The notes under the pieces were generated by a model. It searched no databases. It had not been told where the DNA came from and saw only the letters and a program-made list of their open reading frames with translations. DNA of 64,000 bases from Nitrospinaceae bacterium. Lineage in GTDB: Bacteria > Nitrospinota > Nitrospinia > Nitrospinales > Nitrospinaceae. Each line of letters begins with the position of its first letter. Position 1 is the first letter of the stretch. Position numbers and translations under genes: made by a program. Of this stretch, positions 455 to 52,102 are shown piece by piece. Where the stretch lies: contig OZ245011.1 in assembly GCA_965223665.1 (NCBI GenBank), positions 2,240,001 to 2,304,000 on the forward strand. Direction: 5' to 3'.

Positions 455-468
455 GAAGTCTGCTTTTT
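455..468 (+). repeat. Half copy of island palindromic motif (GAAGTCTGCTTTTT)
   Basis: Lies just after the stop at 451; resembles AACATCCGCTTTT (3379) and AACGTCCGCTTTT (4272). Confidence 0.45.
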
Positions 469-557
469 ATATACTTACCCTGAGTTAGCACTCCTATTGA
501 CAATCCCCCAAATTTAACATAAGGTTTTCCGATAAAACAACACTTGTTGGGGGAACC

Positions 558-1565
558 ATGGAAAAGCACTCACCGATTCCTGTTTTTGTTTTTATCGCCT
601 TCCTATTTATTCCAATTTCTAATGCTTATGCAGCTTGTAACAAACCAAGTGGCATACCGCAATTTGACTCAGACTCTTATTACCAATCAGCCATTGGTAA
701 AACTGGCGATTCGTTAAAATCCGAGTTAAATAAAATTATTAAGAAGCATCATAGACATTCTTATAGTTGCGTGTGGAATATACTTAGAGAATCGGATGAA
801 GATCCTGATAATCCAGACAATGTAATTCTTTTATACACAGGAAGAAGCCAGGACAAATCAAGAAGAGATCAAGGTGGGAATGATCAAAACGCTTGGAACA
901 GAGAACATGTTTGGGCCAAATCTCATGGATTTAAAAGTAAAGGGCAACATGCCCATACAGATGCGCACCACTTAAGACCTACAGATAAATCTGTTAACGC
1001 GGATAGAGGTAACAAGGATTTTGCAAACGGTGGTTCTCCCAATAATGAATGTACTTTATGTAAATCCACTTCTACAACATGGGAACCTCCTGATGCTGTA
1101 AAAGGAGACGTTGCCCGAATGATGTTTTACATGGTAGTTAGATATGAAGGAGAGGATCAATCAAGCACACCGGATTTAGAGCTTGTTGAAAGGTCAACAT
1201 TTGTTGGTTCTCCACGTTTTGGAAAACTGTGTGATTTGTACGGGTGGCATAAACAAGATCAAGTGAGTGATTGGGAAAAGCAAAGGAATTCAGTGGTTTA
1301 TTCCTGGCAGGGTAATAGCAATCCGTTTATTGATCATCCAGAGTTTGCTCAGGCAATCTGGGGTGAAAAGTGTCATGACACAGGACCAGTTGAGCCACCA
1401 GTGGACCCTGAGCCTGATCCAGAGATTCCAGATCCTGAGGTTCCTCAACCTGTACCTGACCACCCCGAACCGGAGGAGCCAAATCCCATTGACAAAGAAA
1501 AATTGGATGGAATTATCAAATCTTTAGAAGAGATTCTTGAAGAAATCCGAAAATTGAGAGAATAA
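558..1565 (+). CDS. Secreted endonuclease I family nuclease (EndA/Bsn-like) with Pro/Glu-rich linker and C-terminal short coiled coil
   Basis: Signal peptide ending AYA; WNREHVWAKSHG, TDAHHLRPTD, NADRGNKDF, KGDVARMMFYMVVRY and QGNSNPFIDHPE motifs. Confidence 0.85.
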   Translation: MEKHSPIPVFVFIAFLFIPISNAYAACNKPSGIPQFDSDSYYQSAIGKTGDSLKSELNKIIKKHHRHSYSCVWNILRESDEDPDNPDNVILLYTGRSQDKSRRDQGGNDQNAWNREHVWAKSHGFKSKGQHAHTDAHHLRPTDKSVNADRGNKDFANGGSPNNECTLCKSTSTTWEPPDAVKGDVARMMFYMVVRYEGEDQSSTPDLELVERSTFVGSPRFGKLCDLYGWHKQDQVSDWEKQRNSVVYSWQGNSNPFIDHPEFAQAIWGEKCHDTGPVEPPVDPEPDPEIPDPEVPQPVPDHPEPEEPNPIDKEKLDGIIKSLEEILEEIRKLRE

Positions 1566-1567
1566 CT

Positions 1568-1756
1568 ATGGCCATCTTTGAACCCTACCGCTGCCACAAA
1601 TGCTTTGAGGAGATTACCTTGGTTCAACCTCAAGCTAAGGATGGTGAGCCCAAAGGAAAAGCAAAGGTTGAATGTATATTTTGTGGATGGAATCAGGAGT
1701 ATCAACTATATAACGGGCAAAAAAATGAGGAATTAATTAATGACAAAAAAGAGTAA
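1568..1756 (+). CDS. Small zinc-ribbon protein
   Basis: CHKC ... CIFC pairs; ATG 2 nt after the nuclease stop. Confidence 0.5.
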   Translation: MAIFEPYRCHKCFEEITLVQPQAKDGEPKGKAKVECIFCGWNQEYQLYNGQKNEELINDKKE

Positions 1757-1922
1757 CGGAGGCAACCGAGAGGAAGTTCCATTGGAAAAAATTGTGATTT
1801 CGAATATGTATAGTATAGAGGGAATAATCAATTTGCTGGTGAAGAAAGAGATAATCACAAAAGAAGAAGTGTTGAAGGAGATGGAACTGGTGGTGAAGGA
1901 GAAGAGAAATACTGAGTCCTAA
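1740..1922 (+). CDS. Small hypothetical protein
   Basis: GAGGA RBS, overlaps upstream ORF; LLVKKEIITKEEV helical motif. Confidence 0.5.
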   Translation: MTKKSNGGNREEVPLEKIVISNMYSIEGIINLLVKKEIITKEEVLKEMELVVKEKRNTES

Positions 1923-1955
1923 AAATGGTTTGAAGGTTATACATTCACTAACGGA

Positions 1956-1983
1956 GGGCTGCTTTCGACCCAAAGCGAACATT
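1956..1983 (+). repeat. Island palindromic motif (GCTTTCGACCCAAAGCGAACATT)
   Basis: Hairpin GCTTT-CGACCC-AAAGC; core CGACCCAAAGC recurs at 2169 and 3438. Confidence 0.75.
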
Positions 1984-2163
1984 TCCCAGAGATCTGCTTA
2001 ATGATTTGGCAACAACCCATCCCTAAGTTATGGATCCACTCAAGCCGCAGTTTGATGAAGAAATCGGTCAAGCTTTCAGGGAAAATTAATATGCCAATTT
2101 TTTCTTGATTACTTATACCCATTGGAATAGGCTTGGGGAAAACCACGAATAAAAGATGTGGTG

Positions 2164-2186
2164 GCTATCGACCCAAAGCAGACATT
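2164..2186 (+). repeat. Island palindromic motif (GCTATCGACCCAAAGCAGACATT)
   Basis: Near-identical to the 1961-1983 copy; 30 nt upstream of the Shedu start. Confidence 0.75.
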
Positions 2187-2216
2187 AGGCCATTAACATG
2201 AGGTGGAAACGAAGGC

Positions 2217-3380
2217 ATGAAAGAAATTATTACTAAATCCACATCACGAGTGACGGCTCAAGTTTCCGATATTGCTCTTAGGGAGACTATTACTACACGC
2301 TTGATATTTCGTCCCATCATAATAGACAATCCCAATAATCGTGAAGCTTCTATAAAGGGTAATTTTCTATTTCAAAGAAAATCGAAAAACTCTCAATGGG
2401 AAGATTTTGAAACTACCCCTTTATCTAAGCTTAAAAGTGGGGAAGGTTTTAAGCTTGAACTTAAGTCTAGTGAATTACTTAAATTAGTAGATGAGATTAA
2501 ACCTTTATATGATCTCCATAAAAATGAAGGTGTTCCCAGAGGTCAAAAGAAATTCGTTCGCGCAACCCCACAACTTGAACAACTAGCATCTCTTACTGAT
2601 GATGATATTTCCAATTATTTAGATGCTAATACTACGATTGGTGCAACATTATTAACAAAACTATTAAATTGGGCTATAAACCTCGATGATCCAACCCCTC
2701 TAATCGAACGATTGGTTGAGCTTAATCCTAAATCTCTTGAAAAATTAAATGCTGCAGTGGGGCTGCAAAGTCTAAAAACTGCACTCGCTACTTGGCAGAA
2801 AAACGTGTGCAATTCAGATGAAGAATTTTGGCAGAAGACTTTAACAGAACATTCATTCGTACTAGAGCAAGCATTTTCATGGCCAACTTCAATTGTCAAA
2901 GGAAAGGCATATGTAAGTGGAAAGTCTGTATTTAACACAGGCGGTAATCTAGTAGATTTTTTGATGAAAAACAGCCTAACTCAAAGTGCTGCCCTTATTG
3001 AAATTAAAACACCTTCAACAAATTTAGTGGGACCTGAATATCGTACAGGAATTTACAATATATCAAGTGAGTTATCTGGCTCGATAATGCAAATTTTGAA
3101 TTATAAGCATTCATTGCAAGAAGACTTCACCATTTTAACAAAAGAGACACCTGATCTTTTCGATTCTTTTAATCCACAGTGTGTAGTAATAGTCGGTAAT
3201 ACTGGGAACGAACTAGATAATCAAAATAAGACGAAGTCATTCGAGCTATATCGCCATCAGTTCCAAAGTGTAACAATAATCTCATACGATGAATTGTTTC
3301 AAAAAATTAAAAACCTTATTAGATTACTGGAAAATCCTATTGAAAATGAAAGTTTTGACGAAGCTGAAATTCCTTTTTAA
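2217..3380 (+). CDS. sduA: Shedu anti-phage nuclease (DUF4263)
   Basis: C-terminal EEFWQKTL..DFL..LIEIKTP..ELSGSIMQILNY..IISYDELF pattern of the Shedu PD-(D/E)xK domain; variable N-terminal domain. Confidence 0.85.
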   Translation: MKEIITKSTSRVTAQVSDIALRETITTRLIFRPIIIDNPNNREASIKGNFLFQRKSKNSQWEDFETTPLSKLKSGEGFKLELKSSELLKLVDEIKPLYDLHKNEGVPRGQKKFVRATPQLEQLASLTDDDISNYLDANTTIGATLLTKLLNWAINLDDPTPLIERLVELNPKSLEKLNAAVGLQSLKTALATWQKNVCNSDEEFWQKTLTEHSFVLEQAFSWPTSIVKGKAYVSGKSVFNTGGNLVDFLMKNSLTQSAALIEIKTPSTNLVGPEYRTGIYNISSELSGSIMQILNYKHSLQEDFTILTKETPDLFDSFNPQCVVIVGNTGNELDNQNKTKSFELYRHQFQSVTIISYDELFQKIKNLIRLLENPIENESFDEAEIPF

Positions 3381-3454
3381 CATCCGCTTTTAGCCGACAG
3401 CGGTAGTTGGGCGTAATCTCTGTTGAAGGACAGATACCGACCCAAAGCGGGCAT
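3379..3454 (+). repeat. Full two-part intergenic palindromic element between sduA and next gene
   Basis: AACATCCGCTTTTAGCCGACAGCGG...GATACCGACCCAAAGCGGGCAT; outer arms are imperfect inverted repeats; overlaps the sduA stop codon. Confidence 0.7.
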
Positions 3455-3530
3455 CCGTCTATATAATTATTCATGAATTTTTTTTGGAATTTTCAGGTTT
3501 TATTTCTTGAAAGAGGAGCCAAGGCGATTT

Positions 3531-4259
3531 ATGAGTGACGACAACAAAGAAGTTAAGAGCTCAAGCGGTTGTAACTGGTACGTTTTTGTTCCATCATTTT
3601 TATTCCTATTGTCGGGGACATTGTTTTTTGGGGTAAAAGAACAACCCGCAGAAATGGGTCTAGCTATTATCGCCGGAGCCATAGGAATGGCCTTTTCCAG
3701 CCTAGATAAATTTGAGTTTTTTAAAGGTGCCGGTTTCGAGGCAAAAACAAGGGAACTTCGGAAAGTCGTTACCGAGGGGAATGAAACTCTTGAAAGGCTT
3801 AGGACGGTTACACTTTTTTCGGCAGAATCAGTTTTGACGCAAGTCATAGCAATGGGCAGATGGGGGGTGGATCTAAGACTAAGAAATGAAACCAAAGCCA
3901 AGGTGGACAGAATTTTAAAGATTATAAATGCCAATCCAGATGAAATCGCCGAAGTTGAAAAGTATTGGAGGAAATACACAATCTGTGATTACATCTTCCA
4001 TATTTTAGGAGGAAGCACAGTACCGGACGGGTTTGATGGAGACGAAACAAAGGAATGGCAGGAGCTTAGGAGGGGTCTTATAGATAACCCACCCAGCCCT
4101 AAAAAATTACGAGACTTTCTAACGAAGTACGGCATGCTCGACACGGAGAGAGAAGGTTTGATAAAGGATTACGAATATTATCTGGAAAACTCTATCCACA
4201 GGGATGAAGAAGCATGGGAAAACCGAGTTGACAAGAGATTGGTTAAAAACTCTTCCTGA
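3531..4259 (+). CDS. Hypothetical protein with N-terminal two-TM hairpin (candidate defence gene)
   Basis: GAGGAG then ATG at 3531; two hydrophobic segments followed by a helical soluble domain; defence-island context. Confidence 0.7.
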   Translation: MSDDNKEVKSSSGCNWYVFVPSFLFLLSGTLFFGVKEQPAEMGLAIIAGAIGMAFSSLDKFEFFKGAGFEAKTRELRKVVTEGNETLERLRTVTLFSAESVLTQVIAMGRWGVDLRLRNETKAKVDRILKIINANPDEIAEVEKYWRKYTICDYIFHILGGSTVPDGFDGDETKEWQELRRGLIDNPPSPKKLRDFLTKYGMLDTEREGLIKDYEYYLENSIHRDEEAWENRVDKRLVKNSS

Positions 4260-4271
4260 ATTATTTTCTTA

Positions 4272-4291
4272 AACGTCCGCTTTTGGCCCAA
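4272..4291 (+). repeat. Half copy of island palindromic motif (AACGTCCGCTTTTGGCCCAA)
   Basis: 12 nt after the stop at 4259; matches the 3379 left arm. Confidence 0.65.
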
Positions 4292-4352
4292 GGTTGAAGC
4301 GCAAGGCCAAAAAAAAAACAAACTCCCTATTCTCTCCTGGCAAAGTTTCAGA

Positions 4353-4385
4353 TTGCACTTCCACCTATCTTGTGCCAAAATGTCA
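4353..4385 (+). promoter_or_regulatory. Putative sigma70 promoter of the methyltransferase operon with overlapping imperfect palindrome
   Basis: TTGCAC-17 nt-CAAAAT with extended TG; TGCCA-AAA-TGTCA overlaps the -10 box. Confidence 0.35.
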
Positions 4386-4405
4386 AAAATATTCCCAGAT
4401 GAGGA

Positions 4406-5701
4406 ATGATGGCAAAAAATCAAAATCAGACAGAATTTGCAAAGCTTCTTAAAAACACAGGGTTTTCCAAGGTAGAGCTTGCCGAACGCATCGGATACAA
4501 CGTCAGAACTATTTACCGGTGGGAGAAAGGAGAAACCCGCCCGAGAAAAGCCATCCTGGATCTTGTCCGTGAAGTAGCAGCTTCTTCCGGAAAAATTCGC
4601 AATCGTTCTCCCAAGGAGTTTGGTTTTAATTTCATTGATCTTTTCGCCGGTATAGGTGGACTCCGGGCAGGGTTTGAAAAAATTGGCGGGAAATGCGTTT
4701 TCACCAGTGAATGGAATGAGCCCTGTCTCCATACCTATCGGGCCAACTTCTCTTGTGATCATGAAATTGAGGGAGATATCACAAAGGTTCCTGAGCACAA
4801 GGTTCCACCTCATGATGTTTTACTGGCGGGTTTTCCCTGCCAGCCTTTTTCCATTGCGGGAGTTTCAAAGAAAAATGCCCTTGGCAGACCACACGGTTTT
4901 TTGTGTGACGCGCAGGGGACCCTGTTTTTTGATGTCGCCCGAATCATTGCGCACCACAAGCCCGCTGTCTTTCTCCTTGAGAATGTAAAAAACCTGATAA
5001 GCCATGACAAGGGAAATACCTTTCGTGTGATCAGGAAAACCCTGGAAGAGGAACTTGGTTATCATATTGACTGGCGGGTAATAAATGCCAAACCCTTTGT
5101 CCCCCAGAACAGGGAAAGAATTTTTATTGCCGGTTTCAGGGAAAATACAAGGTTTGATTTTAATGATCTGGTTTTACCCCCCGAAGAAAACTGGCCTTCT
5201 ATGGTTTCCGTTCTCCATCCGGAAGACGGCTCAGAGCCGGATGAACCACCCTATACCATTGGATCGAGGGGAAAGGTTAATCCCAAATACACCCTTTCTG
5301 AAAAATTATGGACCTATCTTCAAAACTATGCCCAAAAGCATCGCGAAAAAGGCAATGGTTTCGGGTTCGGTCTGGTTGGTAAAAACGACGTAGCCCGAAC
5401 ACTGTCAGCCAGATACTACAAGGATGGTTCTGAAGTTCTGGTACGTCAACGCGGAAGAAGGCCACGCCGCCTGACCCCCCGCGAGTGTGCCCGTCTTATG
5501 GGATTTGATCAGCCAGGGAAACCTCTCTTCCGGATCCCTGTTTCTGATACACAAGCCTATAAACAGTTTGGCAATGCAGTTGTGGTTCCGGTTGTCGAGG
5601 CCGTTGCCGGGTTTATGCTTCCTCATATCCAGCAGGTGATTCATGGAAATTCAAGGCAACAAAAACTTTTTTCTGAAGAGATGCTGTTAGAAGCCGTTTG
5701 A
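4406..5701 (+). CDS. dcm: C5-cytosine DNA methyltransferase (Dcm/M.EcoRII-like, likely CCWGG) with N-terminal HTH
   Basis: [54 protein letters not shown]-terminal [23 protein letters not shown]. Confidence 0.92.
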
Positions 5702-5705
5702 AGCT

Positions 5706-6176
5706 ATGGCTGACATTGTATCCCCCGAAACCCGCAGTCGCATGATGTCCGGAATAAAGGGAAAGGATACTCGCCCTGAACTTTTGATCAGAAAAGGACT
5801 TCATGCCAAAGGACACAGATACCGTCTTCATGTAAAAAGTCTTTCCGGCAAACCTGATCTGGTTTTTCCGAAATACAGGGCTGTTATTCTGGTTCATGGT
5901 TGTTTCTGGCATGGCCATAACTGCCATCTTTTTAAATGGCCATCCACAAGGAAGGATTTCTGGCGTCAAAAGATCACTGGAAATCAGAAAAATGATTCCA
6001 AAAACCTTGCAGCCCTGAAAGAAGATAACTGGAGAGTTATGACCATATGGGAATGTGCCCTCAAGGGCCGCGAACGAATTCCCCTGAATGAAATAATCGA
6101 TAAGGCAGCTGAGTGGCTGTTATCAAACAGGCTCGCAATGGAAATCAGGGGAAGAAAAAAAAGAGATCGGGAATGA
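5706..6176 (+). CDS. vsr: Very short patch repair endonuclease
   Basis: MADIVSPETRSRMMSGIKGKDTRPE, GKPDLV, HGCFWHGH, WECAL. Confidence 0.95.
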   Translation: MADIVSPETRSRMMSGIKGKDTRPELLIRKGLHAKGHRYRLHVKSLSGKPDLVFPKYRAVILVHGCFWHGHNCHLFKWPSTRKDFWRQKITGNQKNDSKNLAALKEDNWRVMTIWECALKGRERIPLNEIIDKAAEWLLSNRLAMEIRGRKKRDRE

Positions 6177-7390
6177 AAAAAGGTTTTCTGTCCGAATATT
6201 TTGAAGGCGTTGCTGCCAAACGATTGAGTGTCGTTGAAGTTGACCCTGCCAGCTCAAACCAGCATGAATTTAATGGAGTGAAAGCCCTGAAACAACTTCT
6301 CGGACCTGAAAGGTTAAATGATATTCCTGTCCGTTTTGTCTGGCTTGGTGAAGAAAACGAAGGTTTGTCTGAAGATTCCCATGTGACCTGGTATGATTCG
6401 CGGGAAAACCATCCGACAAGATCAGAATACCGCCTTTACTTCAAGTCCAACCCGGTCATGGAAATGGCCCGTGAAGGTGATTTGCTGGTTGTTGCCAAAA
6501 GACCTGGTGGTGAACTGATGATAATTATTGCGAGTCAGGGGACTACTATAGAAAACCAGTTGATATGGCTTTTCGGAGTTTCCGTCCAGATAGGGACAGG
6601 TTTTGAGTTTCGGGAGTTGGATGAGCAACAGGATATGGAAGTTGATTTTGCTGTCCGCTTTATTCTGGAAGAACTCGGAATTGAAATTGAGGAACCGGAA
6701 GCCGACCTGTTTGACAGGTTGCTTGAACCTTTTCAGGGCATGTTCCCCAAGACTGCCGAATTTTCTGCCTTTGCAAGAAAAACCCTCTCTGATGTTTCAC
6801 CCATGGATGACCCGGACGCGGCCCTGATAGCCTGGATAGAAAGAGAGGAAAAACTTTTCAGGAGACTGGAACGACACATTGTTTCTGACCGTTTAAAGGA
6901 AGGATTTGCCGGGCCCGAGGGTGCGGATGTAGATGGCTTTATCAGTTTTTCGCTTAGTGTCCAGAATCGCCGAAAATCAAGAATGGGATACTCTCTGGAA
7001 CACCATCTTGAAGAAATATTTTGTTTGCGGGGTATCCGGTATGACAGGAATAAAGTAACTGAAAACAATTCCAAACCGGATTTTTTGTTTCCAGGACAAA
7101 CAGAATATAGGGACCAAAACTTTTCTTCCCTGAAACTTTCCATGCTGGGTGTAAAATCAACCTGCAAGGATCGATGGCGACAGGTTCTTTCCGAGGCCGC
7201 CAGAATACCGGACAAACATCTGCTTACACTGGAACCCGGTATTAGTGAGAACCAGACAAAAGAAATGATGTCCAACCGGCTTCAGCTTGTCATTCCAACC
7301 GGTCTTCATGAGACCTATCAACCTGCCCAGAAGGAATGGCTTATGAATGTAACAGAATTTATCCAACTGGTTCAGGAGCGTCAGGAATGA
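6173..7390 (+). CDS. EcoRII-family type II restriction endonuclease
   Basis: SNQHEFNG N-terminal motif; SVQNRRKSRMG, KPDFLFP, KSTCKDRWRQVLSEA of the EcoRII catalytic domain; ATGA overlap with vsr stop. Confidence 0.88.
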   Translation: MKKGFLSEYFEGVAAKRLSVVEVDPASSNQHEFNGVKALKQLLGPERLNDIPVRFVWLGEENEGLSEDSHVTWYDSRENHPTRSEYRLYFKSNPVMEMAREGDLLVVAKRPGGELMIIIASQGTTIENQLIWLFGVSVQIGTGFEFRELDEQQDMEVDFAVRFILEELGIEIEEPEADLFDRLLEPFQGMFPKTAEFSAFARKTLSDVSPMDDPDAALIAWIEREEKLFRRLERHIVSDRLKEGFAGPEGADVDGFISFSLSVQNRRKSRMGYSLEHHLEEIFCLRGIRYDRNKVTENNSKPDFLFPGQTEYRDQNFSSLKLSMLGVKSTCKDRWRQVLSEAARIPDKHLLTLEPGISENQTKEMMSNRLQLVIPTGLHETYQPAQKEWLMNVTEFIQLVQERQE

Positions 7391-7470
7391 AAATGATTTG
7401 ACGAACAAGAAATGATCACCCTACGCCTAATAGGACATGGGGTTTATTGTCCTTTCGCCCACGTCCCGTT

Positions 7471-8200
7471 AACACTACCCTTCCTTTTTTTCATCTCCGG
7501 CTTGGGCTTGCATCCGTAAACCGAAAGGAGTAGGATTTGGAGTAATTTCCGTTCTATATTATATGGGCTTAGAAATCTGTTAATCCTCATTGGAAAATTT
7601 GATGGCTGAACCTAGTTCCAAAAATCAGGATTCCAAAAACACCAAAACCCACGACACCGTCATGGGCGATAAAGTCGTGGGAGACAAAGTAATAGGCGAT
7701 AAGGTTGGAGGTGACAAGTTTACGGGTGACAAATTTGTTATTGGTATCACCTTAGAAGAACATCACGCGTATTTGCAAAAACGGGAAGCGCAAATCCGCG
7801 CAGAGTTGGCGGAAGAACGCGGGAAAGATCAGGATCGGATTCAGGAATTAGAACTGGAGTTAAGTGCCATTGAAGGCAAACAGGCCAACCTGGAACAATC
7901 TCATAAAGATTATATTGAACAACTGGAAGCTACCAACACGGATTTACAGAAATTCAAAGATCAGTTTTCTCCCGAACAAATGCAGCAAGCCGAAGAAGCT
8001 TTAGCAAGAGGTGATTTATCTGAAGCCGATCAGTTATTTAAAGAACTGGAAGAAAATAAAGAGCGACTGATTTTAATTGAAGAACAAGCCCTGGTCCATT
8101 ATAGGAGAGGAAAAATTGCCCAAGATTCAGTGAACTACCGGGAGGCCTTGAAGCAATACGAACGCGCCTCGCAACTGGCACCAGAGAATGGAACTTATTT
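7471..8200 (+). repeat. Copy 1 of diverged direct duplication (upstream region plus 5' part of TPR gene)
   Basis: Shares GGCTTGGGCTTGCATCCG.AAACCGAAAGGAGTAGGATTTGGA and the coding 5' region with 10148-10880. Confidence 0.9.
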
Positions 8201-9788
8201 AAATTCGACTGGTTTGCTATTTGATACCCTTGGGCAATACGATCGGGCCATTGAATACTACGAGAAAGCGCTTGCCAGTAATCTCAAAACCCTTGGCGAG
8301 AAGCCCCCCAGGGTAGCCTGCATTTGGAATAACCTGGGATTGGCTTTCCGAGACAAGGGTGAATACGACCGAGCCATTGAATACTACGAGAAAGCGCTTG
8401 CCAGTAATCTCAAAACCCTTGGCGAGAAGTCCGCCCAGGTAGCCTACAATTGGAACAACCTCGGAATAGTTTGGGCTGACAAAGGCGATTACGACCGCGC
8501 CATTGAATACTACGAGAAAGCGCTGGGCAATTTTCTCAACACCTTTGGCAAAGAGCACCCTGATGTCGCCCGCTGTTGGAATAACCTGGGATTTGCTTTC
8601 CGAGACAAGGGTGAGTACGACCGCGCCATTGAATACTACGAGAAAGCGCTACACAATGCTGTCAATACATTTAGCGAAGACCATCCTCTTGTCGCCACCT
8701 GTTGGAGCAATCTGGGGGCGACTTGGAATGTTAAGGGTGATCACGACCAGGCCATTGAATACCACGAGAAAGCGCTTGCCAGTGATCTCAAAACCTTTGG
8801 CGAAGACCATCCTAATGTCGCCCGCTGTTGGATCAACCTGGGATTGGTTTTCAAAGACAAGGGTGAGTACGACCGGGCCATTGAATATTACGAGAAAGCG
8901 CTACACAATGCTGTCAATACATTTGGTGAAGACAATCCTCTTGTAGCCACCTGTTGGATCAACCTGGGAGGGGCCTGGAATGCCAAGGGTGATCACGACA
9001 AGGCCATTGAATACTTTGAGAAAGCGCTTCACAGTAATTTGGAAACTTTTGGCGAAGAGCACCCTAATGTCGCCGGCTGTTGGATCAACCTGGGGGCGGT
9101 TTGGAATGATGTCAAGAGTGATCACGACCAGGCCATTGAATACTTTGAGAAAGCGCTGTGCAGTTTTCTCAACACCTTTGGCGAAGAGCACCCTGATGTG
9201 GCCCTCATTTGGATGAACCTCGGAATAGCTTGGGCTGACAAAGGCGATTACGACCGGGCCATTGAATACCACGAGAAAGCGCTTCACAGTAATTTGGAAA
9301 CTCTTGGCGAAAAGCACCCTGATGTGGCCACCTGTTGGACCAACCTGGGAGGGGCCTGGAATGCCAAGGGTGATCACGACCAGGCCATTGAATACTTTGA
9401 GAAAGCGCTTCACAGTAATTTGGAAACTCTTGGCGAAGAGCACCCGGGTTTGGCCCGCATTTGGAATAACCTGGGAGGGGCCTGGAATGCCAAGGGTGAT
9501 CACGACCAGGCCATTGAATACTTTGAGAAAGCGCTACACAATCGACTGGAAACCTTTGGCGAAGATCACCCTGATTTAGCCAGCATTTGGAACAACTTGG
9601 GAATGGCTTGGGCTGACAAAGGGGATTACGACCGGGCCATTGAATATTACGAGAAAACCCTGCTTATTGGTCTAAACACCTTGGGAAAAGATCATCCAAT
9701 GGTGAAATTGGCATTAAAGAATATTGAGGTTATTCATTTAAAAATGAACCCACTCAAATGGTTTTGGAAAAAACTTTGGCCATTTTAA
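7602..9788 (+). CDS. GDKxx-pentapeptide / coiled-coil / 42-aa TPR array protein, paralog 1 (about 12 repeats)
   Basis: ATG 7602 aligns with paralog start MAEP; repeats AxxWxNLGxxWxxKGxYDxAIEYYEKALxxxLxTFGExHPxV. Confidence 0.9.
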   Translation: MAEPSSKNQDSKNTKTHDTVMGDKVVGDKVIGDKVGGDKFTGDKFVIGITLEEHHAYLQKREAQIRAELAEERGKDQDRIQELELELSAIEGKQANLEQSHKDYIEQLEATNTDLQKFKDQFSPEQMQQAEEALARGDLSEADQLFKELEENKERLILIEEQALVHYRRGKIAQDSVNYREALKQYERASQLAPENGTYLNSTGLLFDTLGQYDRAIEYYEKALASNLKTLGEKPPRVACIWNNLGLAFRDKGEYDRAIEYYEKALASNLKTLGEKSAQVAYNWNNLGIVWADKGDYDRAIEYYEKALGNFLNTFGKEHPDVARCWNNLGFAFRDKGEYDRAIEYYEKALHNAVNTFSEDHPLVATCWSNLGATWNVKGDHDQAIEYHEKALASDLKTFGEDHPNVARCWINLGLVFKDKGEYDRAIEYYEKALHNAVNTFGEDNPLVATCWINLGGAWNAKGDHDKAIEYFEKALHSNLETFGEEHPNVAGCWINLGAVWNDVKSDHDQAIEYFEKALCSFLNTFGEEHPDVALIWMNLGIAWADKGDYDRAIEYHEKALHSNLETLGEKHPDVATCWTNLGGAWNAKGDHDQAIEYFEKALHSNLETLGEEHPGLARIWNNLGGAWNAKGDHDQAIEYFEKALHNRLETFGEDHPDLASIWNNLGMAWADKGDYDRAIEYYEKTLLIGLNTLGKDHPMVKLALKNIEVIHLKMNPLKWFWKKLWPF
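8190..9700 (+). repeat. Tandem ~126-bp coding repeats (42-aa TPR units)
   Basis: GCCATTGAATAC...GAGAAAGCGCT recurs every 126 nt (one unit 129 nt). Confidence 0.92.
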
Positions 9789-10016
9789 TAAGAAATTTCG
9801 ATACAAAAAAATATTTTGAAAAATAATTAGAATTTCATTAAAGCCATACCTTATAAACAACTTCAGCAGGAAAAAAATGACTGGCGTAACTAATTGGCTA
9901 CACTCCAGCTAATTTTCTCACCTCTCTTATTTAACTTTTGTTGGTTCTGCCAAACCTCTAATTATCTCTCCCTTTTTCAAATTCAATTTTTGTTCTGGGA
10001 AACAGCGAATATTTGA

Positions 10017-10121
10017 TTACTTCCTATCCAATTTGTTTTCTATCCGGTCGAGTTGTTTCCCAAATCGTTCATGGGATTCATCGTTGGATTTGCGGAATTC
10101 CTCAAAGACATCTTTTTCCAA
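10017..10121 (-). pseudogene. 3' remnant of a homolog of the prophage terminal gene at 12063-12302
   Basis: Translates LEKDVFEEFRKSNDESHERFGKQLDRIENKLDRK*, against LEKDVFEEFRKSNDESHERFGKQLDRIEGKLDGR* in the intact gene; 5' half absent. Confidence 0.9.
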
Positions 10122-10147
10122 TCTCTCCTTTCTTCATTGCTCCAATG

Positions 10148-10880
10148 AACCTACCCCCTTCCCTTTTTCCACTCCCGGCTTGGGCTTGCATCCGAAAACC
10201 GAAAGGAGTAGGATTTGGATTAATTTCCTTTCTATATTATATGGGCTTAAAAATCTGTTTATTCTCATTGGAAAATTATATGGCTGAACCTAACTCTAAA
10301 GATCAAAAATCTAAAAAAGCCAATCCCAAAACAGAAGACACCGTCATCGGCGATAATGTGGTGGGCGACAAAATATTAGGCGATAAGATTGGAGGCGACA
10401 AGTTTACGGGTGACAAATTTGTCATTGGTATCACCCTGGAAGAACACCATGCGTTTTTGCAAAAACGGGAAGCGGAGATCCGCGCCGAGTTGGCTGAAGA
10501 GCGTGGGAAAGATCAAGATCGGATTCAGGAATTGGAACTGGAATTAAGTGCCATTGAAGGCAAACAGGCCAACCTGGAACAATCTTATAAAGATCACATT
10601 GAACAGCTGCAAGCCACCAATACGGATTTACAGAAGTTCAAAGATCAGTTTTCTCCCGAACAAATGCAACAAGCTGAGGAAGCTTTAGCTAGGGGTGATT
10701 TATCTGAGGCCGATCAGTTATTTAAAGAACTGGAAGAAAATAAAGAGCGCTTGTCTTTAATCGAAGAACAAGCTTTGGTTCATTATAGGAGAGGAAAAAT
10801 TGCCGAGGAAGCCGCGGACTATCGTGAGGCCCTGAAGCAATTCGAACGGGCGGCGCAACTGGCACCGGAGAATGGAATTT
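10148..10880 (+). repeat. Copy 2 of diverged direct duplication
   Basis: Aligns with 7471-8200. Confidence 0.9.
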
Positions 10881-12046
10881 ATTTATCGGATACCGGCGTT
10901 CTTTATTTAACCCTTGGTCAATACAACCAGGCCATTAAATTCCATGAGAAAGCGCTCAAGAGCGATTTGAAAACCTTTGGAGAAGATCATCCTAGTGTAG
11001 CTTATGATTGGAACAACCTGGGTGCGACCTGGGTTAAAAAAGGAGATTACGACCGGGCCATTGAATACTACGAGAAAGCACTTGCCAGTATTCTGAAATC
11101 CTTGAGTGAAGACCACCCTAACGTCGCCGCATGTTGGAACAACCTGGGATTGATTTGGGCTGGCAAAGAAGATTACGACCAGGCTATTAAATACTACGAG
11201 AAAGCGCTCTCCAGTACTCTAAAATCCTTGGGTGAAGAACACCCTAAAGTCGCCACAGTATGGAGCAACCTGGGATTGGTTTGGGCTGGCAAAGGAGATT
11301 ACGACCGGGCCATTGAATACTACGAGAAAGCGCTTCACAGTGATCTCAACACCTTTGGCGAGGATCATCCCAGTGTCGCTACAAGGTGGAACAACCTAGG
11401 AGGGGCTTGGGGAAACAAAGAAGATTACGACCGGGCCATTGAATACTACGAGAAAGCGCTTCACAGTGATCTCAACAACTTTGGTGAAGAACACCCTACA
11501 GTCGCCACAGTTTGGAGGAACCTGGGAGGGGCTTGGGAAAACAAAGAAGTTTACGACCGGGCCATTGAATACTACGAGAAAGCCCTTCACAGTGATCTCA
11601 ACACCTTTGGCGAGGATCACGACAGAGTTGCCGAAATTTGGAGCAACCTGGGAGGGGCTTGGGATAAAAAGGGAGATTACGACCAGGCCATTGAATACTA
11701 CGAGAAAGCACTTGCCAGTATTCTGAAATCCTTGAGTGAAGACCACCCTAAAGTCGCCGCATGTTGGAGCAACCTGGGAGTGGCTTGGGCTGGAAAAGGA
11801 GATTACGACCGGGCCATTGAATACTACGAGAAAGCGCTTCACAGTGATCTCAACACCTTTGGCGAGGATCACCCCAGTGTCGCCACAAATTGGACCAAGC
11901 TTGGAGTGGCTTGGGCTAAAAAAGGAGATTACGACCAAGCCCATAATCACATCGCGAAAGCGTCGATGATTTTTGAGAAGATTGGTTTAAATGAAATTGC
12001 AGTGATGGTACAAAGCGAATTCGATGCCATGAGGAAACAAAAGTAA
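10280..12046 (+). CDS. GDKxx-pentapeptide / coiled-coil / 42-aa TPR array protein, paralog 2 (about 9 repeats)
   Basis: ATG 10280 (MAEPNSK) aligns with paralog 1; the ORF-track extension to 10013 runs through non-coding and remnant DNA. Confidence 0.9.
   Translation: MAEPNSKDQKSKKANPKTEDTVIGDNVVGDKILGDKIGGDKFTGDKFVIGITLEEHHAFLQKREAEIRAELAEERGKDQDRIQELELELSAIEGKQANLEQSYKDHIEQLQATNTDLQKFKDQFSPEQMQQAEEALARGDLSEADQLFKELEENKERLSLIEEQALVHYRRGKIAEEAADYREALKQFERAAQLAPENGIYLSDTGVLYLTLGQYNQAIKFHEKALKSDLKTFGEDHPSVAYDWNNLGATWVKKGDYDRAIEYYEKALASILKSLSEDHPNVAACWNNLGLIWAGKEDYDQAIKYYEKALSSTLKSLGEEHPKVATVWSNLGLVWAGKGDYDRAIEYYEKALHSDLNTFGEDHPSVATRWNNLGGAWGNKEDYDRAIEYYEKALHSDLNNFGEEHPTVATVWRNLGGAWENKEVYDRAIEYYEKALHSDLNTFGEDHDRVAEIWSNLGGAWDKKGDYDQAIEYYEKALASILKSLSEDHPKVAACWSNLGVAWAGKGDYDRAIEYYEKALHSDLNTFGEDHPSVATNWTKLGVAWAKKGDYDQAHNHIAKASMIFEKIGLNEIAVMVQSEFDAMRKQK
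10873..11960 (+). repeat. Tandem 126-bp coding repeats (42-aa TPR units)
   Basis: GATTACGACCGGGCCATTGAATACTACGAGAAAGC recurs at 126-nt period. Confidence 0.92.
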
Positions 12047-14040: not shown

Positions 14041-16460
14041 TGATTCACCTCAACTTTATAAACACGATTTTCATATGGGATCGTATATTTCCGGATCTCT
14101 TCAGGGACCGCATAAGTGCGAAGTGGATCCACATCCAAAATCCAAACCAATAGAGTATTTGGATCTATACCCAAGGCACTAGCAGCTGCAGCCGACGGAG
14201 TTAAAGTGATCGGCCCTAAAAAATAATTCGGATCCAAACTTGTGACGCGAGTTCCGGCCGCTACGGGTTGAATAAAAATTCCGCCGGAAAATACTGAGGG
14301 ATCCACAACCAGTGATTTAGAAACGGCCGGTCCCGGTGAGAGGGTGATCCCTCCTAACTCAATAACAGGATCTTGGCCGATGCTTATAACGTTGGCTGGA
14401 TTGGGTGAAACCGTCAGACCGCCCAGAATTAGATTTCCATCCAAAGCATTGACGATGGCGGCCGCGGATCCCGGATTGAGTACTAATCCCCCTAACACCG
14501 TTCCAGGATCCACGGCCAAGGCTCGCAGCCCGGAAACATTACCACTAATTGTGATACTACCCAAAATAACCACCGCTTCGGTGGCGAATACTTTTGCGAT
14601 CGCAGGATTGGGTGAAATACGAATACTTGTATCCACATTGGGATCGATTACCAAGGCCCGGGAAGCTGCAGTGGTTGAAATGATGGTGATCCCACCCAGC
14701 ACCACACCCGGATCTAAACCCAAAGCCACGGCCGCCGCGGTTCCACCGGTTAAAGTAATTCCGCCTGACTCCACTGTGGGGTTCAGTGCGGCAGCAATAA
14801 CCGACGCGATCGATGGGTTGACCAGGATTCCACCCAGCACTACACCCGGATCCACGCCCTCAGTGCTGACAGCTGCTATTTCACCACTTATTGTGATTCC
14901 ACCTAAAATACTATTCGGATCTAAACCGAGTGCGCGGGCTGCGGCCGGATCCGGATTTAAAACTAAACTTGTGTCCACATTGGGATCGATGACTAATGCC
15001 CGGGCCGCTGCAGTTCCGCCGTTTAAAGTAATCCCACCTAACTGAACTGTGGGATTTAATGCGGTGGCGATGGCGGACGTGATCGACGGGTTGACCAGGA
15101 TTTCCCCAATCACCACTTGCGGATCCACACCCAACGCCTTGGCAGCTGCTATTTCTCCACTAATTGTGATTCCGCCTAAAATAATATTCGGATCAAAACT
15201 GAGTGTGCGGGCTGCGGCTAAGGTGGGCGTTAAGGTAATCCCTCCTAACTGGACTGAGGGATCCATCACTAAGGACCGAGCGGAGGCCGTGTTAGGAATA
15301 ATGGTGATTCCACTCAACACAGTGTTGGGATCCACCACAGCGGCTTTGGCCGATGCCGGTCCGGGTGTGACCGTGACACCGCTGGAAGGCTCCACCACCA
15401 AATAGGCGACCATGTTTTCGATTCTAAGATCCGCCGGACCCACAACTTTTCCACCCATTTGGAAAAACTGGGAAAGTGTCGGCACCACGTTGGCCGCTTC
15501 AGAAACTTTCATCAAAATGGTATTGGTGGCGTTGACGGTGACCACATCTTCCGTGAGCGTGTCCACATTGTTTCCGTAGATTATCGAATAAGTTGTGGAT
15601 CCACCGGTTCCTGCAGAAAAATCACCAATGATTTTACAACCCAGAACGTTGGTTCCACTTGCGTTGGAATCGCCACTCGGTCCTGACCGGGTACCACTAT
15701 TGGTGATCATTTCACCGGATCTCGGATCGCCTGTGTATTCTCCACGGTTACCGGCGCCAGTGGTGAATGGCGCCTGGGAAACTTTGCCCCAATCGCCCAC
15801 GTCAAAGGCGTCGCCCTGATCCTGGGTGCCACCATCGGTTTTTTGGTACATCAAGACATCAACGTCCCCCGCCGGTCCGTCGGTGATGTCTGTGGCATCG
15901 CTGTACCACAACCATTTTGAAAACCTTTGTGTTTTACCACCTCCAGAGGTTTTGAGTTCCAAATAATCGACGGTATTATTTCCGGTTTTGAAATCACAGG
16001 CTACGACGTTTGACACCTCGGTGCCATCGACTTCCATTTTAAAGGCGCCGCTGTTGGCATTTTGGAAGTAAATTTTTAATCGGTGTTTTTGCCCCAACGT
16101 GAACGGGTTGGTGATGGTATCTTTAACCGCTGCTTTAGAATCGATGACCTGGACATCACCGGTGGACTGAATGACACGCAATTCTAAAATTAAATTTCCG
16201 CCGGTATCAATGATATTGATGATATCGGAATCGCCAGTGTGGCCGGTATTGACCCGGGTGTAATAACCAATCACCACATGATTGTCCCCCGCCTTGGCGA
16301 CGGCATCAAAAATCAAAAACCGGGCACGGTCCCCTTGTTCACACACCAATTCGTAATCGCTGCCAATTAAAGAAACGACGGGTGTATTCGTGATCCCGTT
16401 GGTGACATCGGTTAAGTCCTGCGTTAAGAAAGCAAAGATCTGATTTAGGGTGAAAGCCAT
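14037..16460 (-). CDS. Phage fibre-like protein: N-terminal beta-sandwich domain plus ~28-aa GGITL..DP repeats
   Basis: About 15 repeats of GGITxxxxxAAAxALxxDPxVxL in C-terminal half; position among tail accessory genes. Confidence 0.7.
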   Translation of the reverse strand: MAFTLNQIFAFLTQDLTDVTNGITNTPVVSLIGSDYELVCEQGDRARFLIFDAVAKAGDNHVVIGYYTRVNTGHTGDSDIINIIDTGGNLILELRVIQSTGDVQVIDSKAAVKDTITNPFTLGQKHRLKIYFQNANSGAFKMEVDGTEVSNVVACDFKTGNNTVDYLELKTSGGGKTQRFSKWLWYSDATDITDGPAGDVDVLMYQKTDGGTQDQGDAFDVGDWGKVSQAPFTTGAGNRGEYTGDPRSGEMITNSGTRSGPSGDSNASGTNVLGCKIIGDFSAGTGGSTTYSIIYGNNVDTLTEDVVTVNATNTILMKVSEAANVVPTLSQFFQMGGKVVGPADLRIENMVAYLVVEPSSGVTVTPGPASAKAAVVDPNTVLSGITIIPNTASARSLVMDPSVQLGGITLTPTLAAARTLSFDPNIILGGITISGEIAAAKALGVDPQVVIGEILVNPSITSAIATALNPTVQLGGITLNGGTAAARALVIDPNVDTSLVLNPDPAAARALGLDPNSILGGITISGEIAAVSTEGVDPGVVLGGILVNPSIASVIAAALNPTVESGGITLTGGTAAAVALGLDPGVVLGGITIISTTAASRALVIDPNVDTSIRISPNPAIAKVFATEAVVILGSITISGNVSGLRALAVDPGTVLGGLVLNPGSAAAIVNALDGNLILGGLTVSPNPANVISIGQDPVIELGGITLSPGPAVSKSLVVDPSVFSGGIFIQPVAAGTRVTSLDPNYFLGPITLTPSAAAASALGIDPNTLLVWILDVDPLRTYAVPEEIRKYTIPYENRVYKVEVNQ

Positions 16461-51121: not shown

Positions 51122-52102
51122 ATGAACGATAGTCGAATGACTAAATCTCCAAAAGATTCAAACCAGGTGTCCCGTGATAACGTAAGGGATTTTTATTCTA
51201 AAGCTGCAGTTTCTACCCAAGAAAGTTTATGTTGCCCAGTTAACTATGATCCTACAGATTTATCTCACATTCCAAAAGAGGTAATGGAAATCTCTTATGG
51301 ATGCGGTAGTCCGGTCAATCGGGCAAACTTGTCTTCAGGAGAATCTTTGGTTGACTTAGGATCTGGAGGAGGAATTGACTGCTTTATTGCTGCAAAAATT
51401 GTAGGGCAAAATGGACAAGTCACTGGAATTGATATGACGGAAAAAATGCTCCAAGTCGCACAAAAAAATTCAGAACAGGTAAGTAAAAACTTAGGATATA
51501 ACAATCTTGAATTTAAGCACGGTTTTCTTGAATCAATTCCAATGGAAAACGAATCGGTAGATGTTGTAACTTCTAATTGTGTTGTCAATCTGTCTACGGA
51601 TAAAAAAGAAGTTTTTTCAGAAATTCACCGGATTTTAAAACCCGGCGGTCGTTTCGTGATTGCAGACATTATTTCCGATCAAGTCGTACCCGAGGAAATG
51701 AAAAATAATAAAGAATTATGGGGCGAATGTATTTCGGGGGCATTGACTCTGGAAGAATTTTTAAGTTTTGCTAAAAATTCAAACTTTCATGGTTTCACTG
51801 TTTTCAAAGATTATTTATGGAAAAAAGTGGAAGGCTTAAAATTTTACTCTTATATAATCACAGGTTTCAAACCCCTGGTCCTTGAAGAGTTATCTTGTTG
51901 CGCGCCCGACTTATTAGCTATTTATTCGGGTCCTTTTCCTTCAGTTAATGTTCAGGGTACTGATTTTGCCACCGGTGCTTCTGTAACTGTTGATCAAAAT
52001 TTAGCTAAGGTGCTAGGGTCTCCCCCTTATAAAGGAATGTTTAATATAATTGATCCTGAAAGTGAATCAATCAAAGAGGCTGATGATTCCTGCTGTGGGT
52101 AG
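51122..52102 (+). CDS. Arsenite methyltransferase-like SAM-dependent methyltransferase
   Basis: LCCP, SYGCGSP, DLGSGGGIDC, SNCVVNL, WGECISGAL, C-terminal CCG. Confidence 0.8.
   Translation: MNDSRMTKSPKDSNQVSRDNVRDFYSKAAVSTQESLCCPVNYDPTDLSHIPKEVMEISYGCGSPVNRANLSSGESLVDLGSGGGIDCFIAAKIVGQNGQVTGIDMTEKMLQVAQKNSEQVSKNLGYNNLEFKHGFLESIPMENESVDVVTSNCVVNLSTDKKEVFSEIHRILKPGGRFVIADIISDQVVPEEMKNNKELWGECISGALTLEEFLSFAKNSNFHGFTVFKDYLWKKVEGLKFYSYIITGFKPLVLEELSCCAPDLLAIYSGPFPSVNVQGTDFATGASVTVDQNLAKVLGSPPYKGMFNIIDPESESIKEADDSCCG

Follow-up and report, generated by a model that had tools for sequence, protein, structure and literature searches.

Palindromic units as probable joints between exchangeable accessory-gene modules in a Nitrospinaceae genome and in Escherichia coli prophages

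The 64,000-nt stretch of DNA analyzed here (the window) comes from a Nitrospinaceae bacterium whose 4.35-Mb genome is 98.6% complete (genome G000; contigs C1, C2, C4, and C5). Near the start of the window, short palindromic units separate single genes, among them sduA, which encodes a Shedu defense protein, and a gene for a protein with two transmembrane segments (2-TM protein). An earlier note on this DNA described the array as integron-like and proposed that the palindromes are recombination sites of a system that captures and stockpiles single defense genes. The evidence presented here suggests that the units are probably joints between exchangeable accessory-gene modules. The array comprises the following features, all on the + strand; positions are those of the window unless a contig is named.

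455-467: weak left-arm-like match, GAAGTCTGCTTTT (two mismatches; chance-level frequency)
558-1565: gene of the endonuclease I family (Pfam Endonuclease_1), followed by two small open reading frames (ORFs) at 1568-1756 and 1740-1922; the block ends 44 bases ahead of the first unit
1957-1982: single B-type unit; degenerate arm GGCTGCTTT, spacer CGACCC, conserved arm AAAGCGAAC followed by AT (exact motif)
1982-2089: 3' remnant of a gene, about 35 codons, 84% identical to C5:24651-24755 and like the 348-aa ORF at C5:24649-25695 (- strand)
2090-2168: repeated leader ahead of a B unit, with 81% identical copies at C1:3031628-3031724 and C2:34683-34779 (- strand), each followed by a different gene
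2160-2185: B-type unit ahead of sduA; degenerate arm GGTGGCTAT, spacer CGACCC, arm AAAGCAGAC followed by AT (exact motif)
2217-3380: sduA (Shedu), the cargo of module 1 (Pfam SduA_N and SduA_C; PADLOC SduA, 433 bits)
3379-3454: inverted doublet overlapping the sduA stop codon (covariance model, 55.3 bits, E = 3e-12)
3382-3405: A unit of the doublet; arm 3382-3390, spacer TAGCCG 3391-3396, inner arm 3397-3405
3429-3452: B unit of the doublet; inner arm 3429-3437, spacer CGACCC 3438-3443, arm 3444-3452
3531-4259: gene for the 2-TM protein, the cargo of module 2 (from the ORF list; 242 aa from the ATG, with a TTG start at 3507 possible)
4272-4298: single A-type unit after the 2-TM gene; arm GTCCGCTTT at 4275-4283, spacer TGGCCC, degenerate arm AAGGTTGAA (exact left arm)
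4282-4316: sequence resembling the final codons of a 151-aa ORF on C2 together with the hairpin behind them; it forms a hairpin with an A-run after it (89% identity to C2:34975-35009, - strand)

Between 2217 and 4298 a site follows each of the co-oriented ORFs, and sduA and the 2-TM gene each have a B unit ahead and an A unit behind, so that the two types alternate. Co-orientation extends to all genes of 558-4259 in the ORF list, and reading of the sequence places inverted conserved arms around both sduA and the 2-TM gene, as the earlier note had described. The distance from unit to start codon is 31 bases for sduA and 76 bases for the 2-TM gene, the product of which had no Pfam match over the cut-off and no PADLOC match. 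The leader, of which there is a partial further copy at C2:33304-33354, has a -35/-10-like pair that was recognized by eye only and that a promoter scan does not flag.

Anatomy of the unit and its copies in the window

The two motifs that were first noticed in this array are halves of one unit. Comparison of copies from the whole genome and its relatives gave an arm, GTCCGCTTT, a 6-base spacer, and an inverted arm, AAAGCGGAC. The basic unit can be written as AATGTCCGCTTT, a 6-base spacer, and AAAGCGGACATT, and it occurs singly or as an inverted doublet. Units are 24 to 30 bp long with arms of 9 to 12 bases, and the spacer is always 6 bases. Across 105 units from many taxa the dyad reaches AATG...CATT, with G-C at position 1 in 96 of the 105, A-T at position 3 in 62, and A-T at position 4 in 58. 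Position 2 outside the core covaries, with 52 Watson-Crick pairs versus 40.7 in shuffles.

Doublets span 35 to 83 bases; their outer arms are the conserved ones, and their inner arms are degenerate. In this lineage a TGGCCG-like spacer comes first and the CGACCC spacer second. The junction at 3379-3454 is a true two-unit palindrome, as had been proposed from its sequence, and its covariance score is high. Its fold energy is unremarkable (z = -1.4, no better than shuffles); three other doublets have z-scores of -3.4, -3.7, and -6.0. No Rfam family matches the units. Consensus scans flagged none of the window's units as a terminator and found no promoter in the leader at 2090-2168. The unit stem-loops may insulate transcription.

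The significance of the motif was evaluated by comparing match counts with those in 100 shuffles of the window. The right-arm motif CGACCCAAAGCRRRCAT is present as exact copies at 1966, 2169, and 3438, ahead of the three segments for which it had been reported. When up to three mismatches were allowed there were 4 matches in the whole window versus a shuffle mean of 0.97, and 4 matches were reached in 0 of 100 shuffles; the sole further match at this stringency is at 52086-52102 on the - strand. Exact copies of the left arm AASRTCYGCTTTT are at 3379 and 4272 (2 matches versus 0.08 expected; 2 reached in 1 of 100 shuffles). Thus, the reported inverse arm was recovered after two of three stop codons. 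The third reported copy, at 455, has two mismatches relative to the original pattern, and at such stringency the window has 23 matches versus 17.1 expected, with 14 of 100 shuffles reaching 23. This copy was not counted as the motif because two-mismatch matches are not above chance. The sequence after it has no unit-like spacer or second arm, and the match is probably due to chance or is a decayed remnant. Five of the six copies in the earlier note are therefore real. Beyond the array, neither the motif scan nor a sequence comparison with filters off revealed a further copy in the window, in agreement with that note.

Distribution of the units and breaks of homology

To evaluate the rest of the genome, a covariance model was built from seven genomic doublets, the copy at 3379-3454 among them. 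Scanning with this model located eight full doublets in the 4.35 Mb, all in three regions: 1.557-1.563 Mb (three doublets), the window (one), and 3.029-3.033 Mb (four). Thus, the motif is not scattered through this genome like an ordinary repetitive extragenic palindrome (REP). Contigs C2 and C4 and the interval 1.50-1.56 Mb also contain half units. For half-sites with at most one mismatch, the whole genome had 59 versus 74 for a reversed control.

The gene-unit-gene layout recurs in two further regions of the genome. At C1:3027209-3034482, units separate genes for a PIF1-like helicase, a trypsin-like protease, a DUF4238 protein, an 80-aa ORF, a 332-aa ORF, a TIR-domain protein, and a 186-aa ORF. 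Six of these are on the + strand, with a unit 2 to 110 bases after each, and the DUF4238 gene is on the opposite strand between two doublets. Inverted B and A units alternate in this array too, and it is flanked by an AlpA/primase-like block and a P4-type integrase. Beside that integrase, at C1:3036205-3036291 (L043:16205-16291), is a weak transfer-messenger RNA-like fragment (13.5 bits, E = 0.21) that may be the remnant of an attachment site.

The cargo at 1.557-1.563 Mb is not defense related. It includes genes for a SUI1 homologue and a HEAT-repeat protein, as well as an ankyrin-repeat gene that has doublets on both sides. Within this region, C1:1559914-1560340 (L042:4914-5340) belongs to another repeat family of about 70 to 250 bases, which is found at dozens of sites in a sister genome at 68 to 92% identity.

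Two paralogous tyrosine recombinases, 34% identical to each other, are encoded 2.4 to 6.4 kb upstream of the window at C1:2233583-2234713 (+ strand) and C1:2236522-2237562 (- strand). They are followed by small ORFs and a gene with a Cro/CI-type helix-turn-helix (HTH). The window's array thus resembles the end of an integrative element at which the cargo lies.

In this genome the three copies of the leader and B unit are alike to the end of the unit, with homology stopping just after it, and unrelated beyond. The cargos that follow are sduA, a homologue with 26% identity to SduA, and an unrelated ORF. A contig from another study that carries a copy of sduA matches 2169-3274 with 59 differences; the match begins at the first base of the spacer and is preceded by 1752 unlike bases. 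The PIF1 cassette of a sister genome has 80% identity that starts at its B unit, and the upstream DNA is unrelated. A replacement that distinguishes this genome from the sister genome has its right break at the outer edge of a doublet. The truncated gene remnant in the window touches the unit at 1982. Synteny between the window island and the sister genome revealed only matches to short repeats and no usable empty site. The contig joints listed for this region lie at 5032-8858, and none touches the units.

The unit is not private to this island, as might have been supposed from the window. The covariance model had matches in 19 of 61 genomes of the same order, with the window's genome included. 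A scan of named genome records with an exact pattern found at least 118 stretches in alpha-, beta-, and gammaproteobacteria, Nitrospinaceae, Nitrospirota, and others. Five genomes had 71, 38, 26, 22, and 2 copies, versus 0, 0, 0, 0, and 2 copies of a control pattern. Unit-bearing records include 514 plasmids, 295 of 5426 E. coli genomes, 20 phages, and 67 viral contigs. The 71-copy genome (G065) also carries a separate repeat of about 115 bases (L208:8752-8870) at 10 or more places.

In lambdoid prophages of E. coli a variable region lies between a DUF977 gene and hokD, and the unit sits at its left edge. Cargo here, on either strand, includes AbiH, SIR2, AIPR, DUF4209, QueH, and others, and at its right edge a second unit with the spacer TCGCTC was found in three of the seven variants examined. 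In phage P2 the fun(Z) region has at its left edge a unit at 15335-15358, directly after gene G, and at its right edge a degenerate TCGCTC unit. In the Z region of P2-EC48 (AJ512681) a unit at 92-115 shares its final base with the end of the annotated 'left inverted repeat' (3-115), and further units lie between ORF1, ORF2, and ORF3. The annotated right repeat (3166-3256) differs from the right unit (3777-3800).

Borders of the P2-type Z region were found in 1579 E. coli genomes. Among the matches listed for P2-like prophages, 27 cover the right backbone only; homology begins with the first unit base in 11 of these and with the first spacer base in 4. In the P2-like prophage of E. coli JCKP02 (L311:2509-2533), the right unit carries its cargo-side arm three times over, as tandem copies of the 8-base repeat GTCCGCAT.

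A left unit was recognized in 11 of 12 E. coli hotspot loci and a right unit in 8. Among left units, the spacer GTGCCA was exact in 8 of 12 and the two arms in 4 and 3; among right units, the spacer TCGCTC was exact in 7 of 12 and the arms in 0 and 3. This pairing of a GTGCCA spacer on the left with a TCGCTC spacer on the right is common to three unrelated E. coli backbones, and the two spacer classes dominate in viral contigs, with 23 and 24 of 68 units. None of the 67 viral contigs had an 'empty' hotspot with a single unit.

One cassette is found in two unrelated E. coli backbones. The S1-peptidase cassette of a P2-like prophage recurs, at 99.4% identity, in an island of another strain. The shared stretch begins at the left unit and ends at the right one; the arms that face the backbone are different. 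Next to the island copy are a HEPN gene, a NACHT gene, and an integrase whose DNA-binding domain is of the arm type.

Exchange at the units and alternative explanations

These results suggest that the units are joints between exchangeable accessory-gene modules, and we consider this reading likely. The comparisons show modules that have evidently been gained, lost, and replaced through apparent crossovers inside the units or at their edges. Crossovers at these positions would allow a gene and the unit-proximal arms to move between unrelated backbones. In the genome studied here, the units would divide integrase-bearing islands into single-gene modules; elsewhere, the same family would border the Z/fun moron region of P2-like phages, the variable region of lambdoid prophages, and an E. 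coli island hotspot beside an integrase.

The proposal that the units are recombination sites of a cassette-capture system therefore holds in part. They are seams of single-gene modules and homology breaks in or at them, but site-specific action is an inference. Nor are the units confined to defense genes: they flank the ankyrin gene, are close to the SUI1 and HEAT-repeat genes, and have housekeeping neighbors in the 71-copy genome.

Several observations weigh against the units being joints. In the replacement that distinguishes this genome from the sister genome, the left break is about 23 bases outside the doublet. One strain variant breaks at 3067, inside sduA and away from any motif, and is an exception to the correspondence between motif and breakpoint in the leader copies, the contig that starts at 2169, the PIF1 cassette, and the S1-peptidase cassette. 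This variant, from a second sample of the study that yielded the 2169-3274 contig, is identical over 3067-7136 and has 580 unlike bases before 3067, which suggests an sduA allele with another N-terminal part or a recombination point within the gene. Among relatives of sduA in metagenome contigs, a unit was beside the gene in 0 of 9, and thus the unit does not travel with Shedu generally. A recognizable right unit is missing in 4 of the 12 E. coli hotspot loci and a left unit in 1. The 12 loci were found via backbone homology, and therefore their common spacers may in part reflect common descent. In the gammaproteobacterium with 71 copies, the units are largely between housekeeping genes (argG, mscS, lysS), a spread more like that of REPs than that of cassettes. 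No excision, circle, or inversion junction was found in assembled contigs, which drop rare forms. Breaks vary among the unit edge, the boundary of arm and spacer, and positions within the arm, a variation that would not be expected from a strict site-specific cut. Finally, no dedicated recombinase was found; the earlier note had placed it outside the window.

A gene that regularly accompanies the unit was considered as an enzyme candidate. Among the matches listed, 640 ORFs around 118 loci formed no recurrent neighbor, the largest cluster having 9 members, and this lack of recurrence ruled out a shared neighboring gene. A Pfam scan of 10 of 81 close neighbors returned unrelated functions and no candidate enzyme.

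If the units are joints, two routes of exchange have comparable appeal. Site-specific exchange between two sites with unlike spacers, catalyzed by a host recombinase or one that is still unrecognized, would be close to an even prospect. The arm-spacer-arm build, the two spacer classes, and spacers conserved at least as well as the arms fit the core site of a recombinase and a two-site cassette exchange. Short-homology recombination, with the units as portable 30-bp linkers, would be a strong minority prospect; the variable positions of the breaks, the cargo in either orientation, and the failure to find an enzyme fit such linkers. Other routes would account for the small remainder.

A broader possibility, which we regard as tentative, is a cassette-exchange system that spans phyla. 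In such a system, a gene would lie between two inverted 12-6-12 sites of two classes that differ only in the spacer. A recombinase, either widespread or of the host, would swap the gene between replicons with the same site pair, whether these are phages, satellites, plasmids, or islands, and the units would serve as a common plug and socket for defense and accessory genes that works without an integron integrase.

The best surviving alternative is that the unit is a selfish palindrome similar to REPs, bacterial interspersed mosaic elements (BIMEs), or miniature inverted-repeat transposable elements, or a conserved stem-loop terminator or mRNA stabilizer downstream of genes. It would have been spread by some other route, and its overlap with breakpoints would be a by-product of its intergenic, repeated nature. 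We consider this unlikely but worth retaining because REP-like spread needs a copying route that neither mechanism of exchange supplies. The 22 to 71 copies in each of four proteobacterial genomes, the housekeeping neighbors, and the diversity of ORFs around the 118 loci are as expected for such an element. So is the patchy distribution, with many copies in just 1 of 20 relatives of the 71-copy genome; these relatives are about 70% identical, too distant to reveal insertion sites. The doublet form resembles REP doublets, and the covariation at position 2 and the folding of several doublets would suit a conserved stem-loop. REP/BIME elements and REP doublets forming hairpins (REPINs) are likewise short imperfect palindromes downstream of genes, occur as inverted doublets, and reach tens of copies, as the unit does in some genomes.

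In contrast to this alternative, the window's genome has few copies, in three regions only. The dispersed, many-copy feature of REPs is absent there and present in the genomes with 71, 38, 26, and 22 copies. A REP family is usually confined to one species or genus, and the unit has nearly the same sequence in records that range from Nitrospinaceae to E. coli phages. No REP-associated tyrosine transposase (Y1/RAYT, PF01797) was detected in the window's genome or in three genomes with 22 to 38 units, and the 71-copy genome had a single match of 22 bits, below the cut-off of 23; a REP/RAYT identity was rejected on this basis. The sequence of the 12-base arm, not its pairing alone, is kept across phyla, which a terminator does not need, and the terminator scan of the window's units was negative. 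One cassette moved from unit to unit between unrelated backbones is more than co-location.

Another explanation, which we consider very improbable, is that the unit is an operator for a dimeric regulator of accessory or defense genes with no role in recombination. The perfect dyad, the conserved arms, the fixed 6-base spacer, and the position just upstream of sduA and the 2-TM gene would suit an operator. However, no common regulator gene was found beside the units among the ORFs listed around the 118 loci, and units are equally often after stop codons and between convergent genes. Such a regulator would need to be conserved from Nitrospinaceae to E. coli phages, and an operator would leave the breakpoints at units unexplained.

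Least probable of all is that the units are noncanonical attC sites in a cluster without an integrase, folded as single strands for an IntI-type integrase that is encoded elsewhere or lost. Integron cassettes are likewise arrays of mostly single, co-oriented, often promoterless genes with an imperfect palindrome after each, and they too carry defense cargo. attC sites consist of two simple sites, and the doublets here are two inverted simple sites with a variable center, the outer arms best conserved, that can overlap stop codons. However, an integron was rejected on the basis of IntI scores below the cut-off (the best TIGR02249 score in the window's genome was 82.8 bits, with 265 required, and none of 5 further genomes that carry units exceeded this cut-off) and the missing core sites. 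The expectation that no canonical integron would be found was therefore correct, as was the statement that the window copies lack a GTTRRRY core, with ATTAGGC present at 2184. The outer ends are AATG...CATT rather than AAC...GTT (RYYYAAC...GTTRRRY), sequence and not structure alone is conserved across phyla, and single 24- to 30-bp duplex palindromes also occur, inverted on either side of a gene, with cargo on either strand.

Modules that are exchanged at short repeats are known from other systems. In Acinetobacter, plasmid dif (pdif) modules with sites of about 28 bp are shuffled between replicons, according to the portions consulted of three papers (PMC6449649, PMC13141974, PMC12907356). As in the units, a pdif site in those portions is an arm, a 6-base spacer, and an arm, and modules lie between two inverted sites whose orientation alternates along arrays. 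The hosts, the phage and island backbones, and the doublet form differ from those of pdif modules. The two arms of a XerC/XerD site pair are unlike each other. In contrast, both arms of the unit are one sequence and form a true palindrome, whereas pdif sites resemble chromosomal dif and are taken as XerC/XerD sites.

A second comparison is with the promoter early stem-loop (PeSL) cassettes of T4-type phages, for which recombination of the linker kind has been proposed. As described in the consulted portion of Arbiol et al. 2010 (PMC2839356), recombination between these repeated stem-loop cassettes mediates insertions, deletions, and replacements. Like the units, PeSLs in that portion are short repeated intergenic stem-loop cassettes between nonessential genes in hyperplastic regions, and breakpoints lie in the repeats, the break at 3067 being the exception here. 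Unlike the units, which span phyla and for which scans flag neither promoter nor terminator, PeSLs are there specific to a phage lineage and have a strong promoter and a working terminator.

The border repeats of the P2 Z region are the closest relatives of the units, as the same unit family is at the edge of a variable moron region with anti-phage genes in the cargo. The units described here differ in that they are in a distant, nonenteric genome, in chromosomal islands, and mostly in doublets. The report associated with the AJ512681 record, on the P2-like Z/fun region (Nilsson, Karlsson and Haggard-Ljungquist 2004, Mol Biol Evol 21:1-13), proposes site-specific recombination in its title.

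The role of the unit in P2-like phages was thus partly anticipated. The papers searched describe neither how broad the family is nor its proposed role as one joint common to phages, to an integrase island of E. coli, and to a distant genome. No match was found in the literature searched by sequence for the unit strings or for peptides read from the unit, and a keyword search for palindromes of defense cassettes gave nothing specific among the titles listed. In the accessible portion of its text, Rousset et al. 2022 (PMC9122126) leaves the exchange pathway for P2 and P4 hotspots open. That portion does not mention palindrome, hairpin, inverted repeat, or stem-loop, and the portion of the preprint has no repeat, palindrome, or hairpin. 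The portions searched of later hotspot papers make no mention of breadth across phyla or of spacer classes common to several backbones.

Defense genes turn over fast at a few hotspots, and the route of their exchange is an open question. A conserved joint predicts where cargo starts and ends, which could help in mining cargo genes of unknown function between units. It also points to a missing enzyme or to a linker-based route of recombination. If the exchange is site specific, the units would represent a third cassette system beside integrons and dif modules.

Genes adjoining the array

The endonuclease I gene and the small ORFs upstream of the first unit (619-1902) have an 85% identical second copy at C1:588355-589632, with no unit nearby. 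Downstream, a restriction-modification set follows the unit-flanked modules at 4406-7390 and consists of an HTH-fused C5 cytosine methylase, a Vsr mismatch endonuclease, and an endonuclease of the EcoRII-C family. Next to this set, 7590-9788 encodes a 732-aa protein made up nearly entirely of tetratricopeptide repeats, and the DNA at 7739-11962 has 65 to 78% identical matches on contig C5 and at several chromosomal sites.

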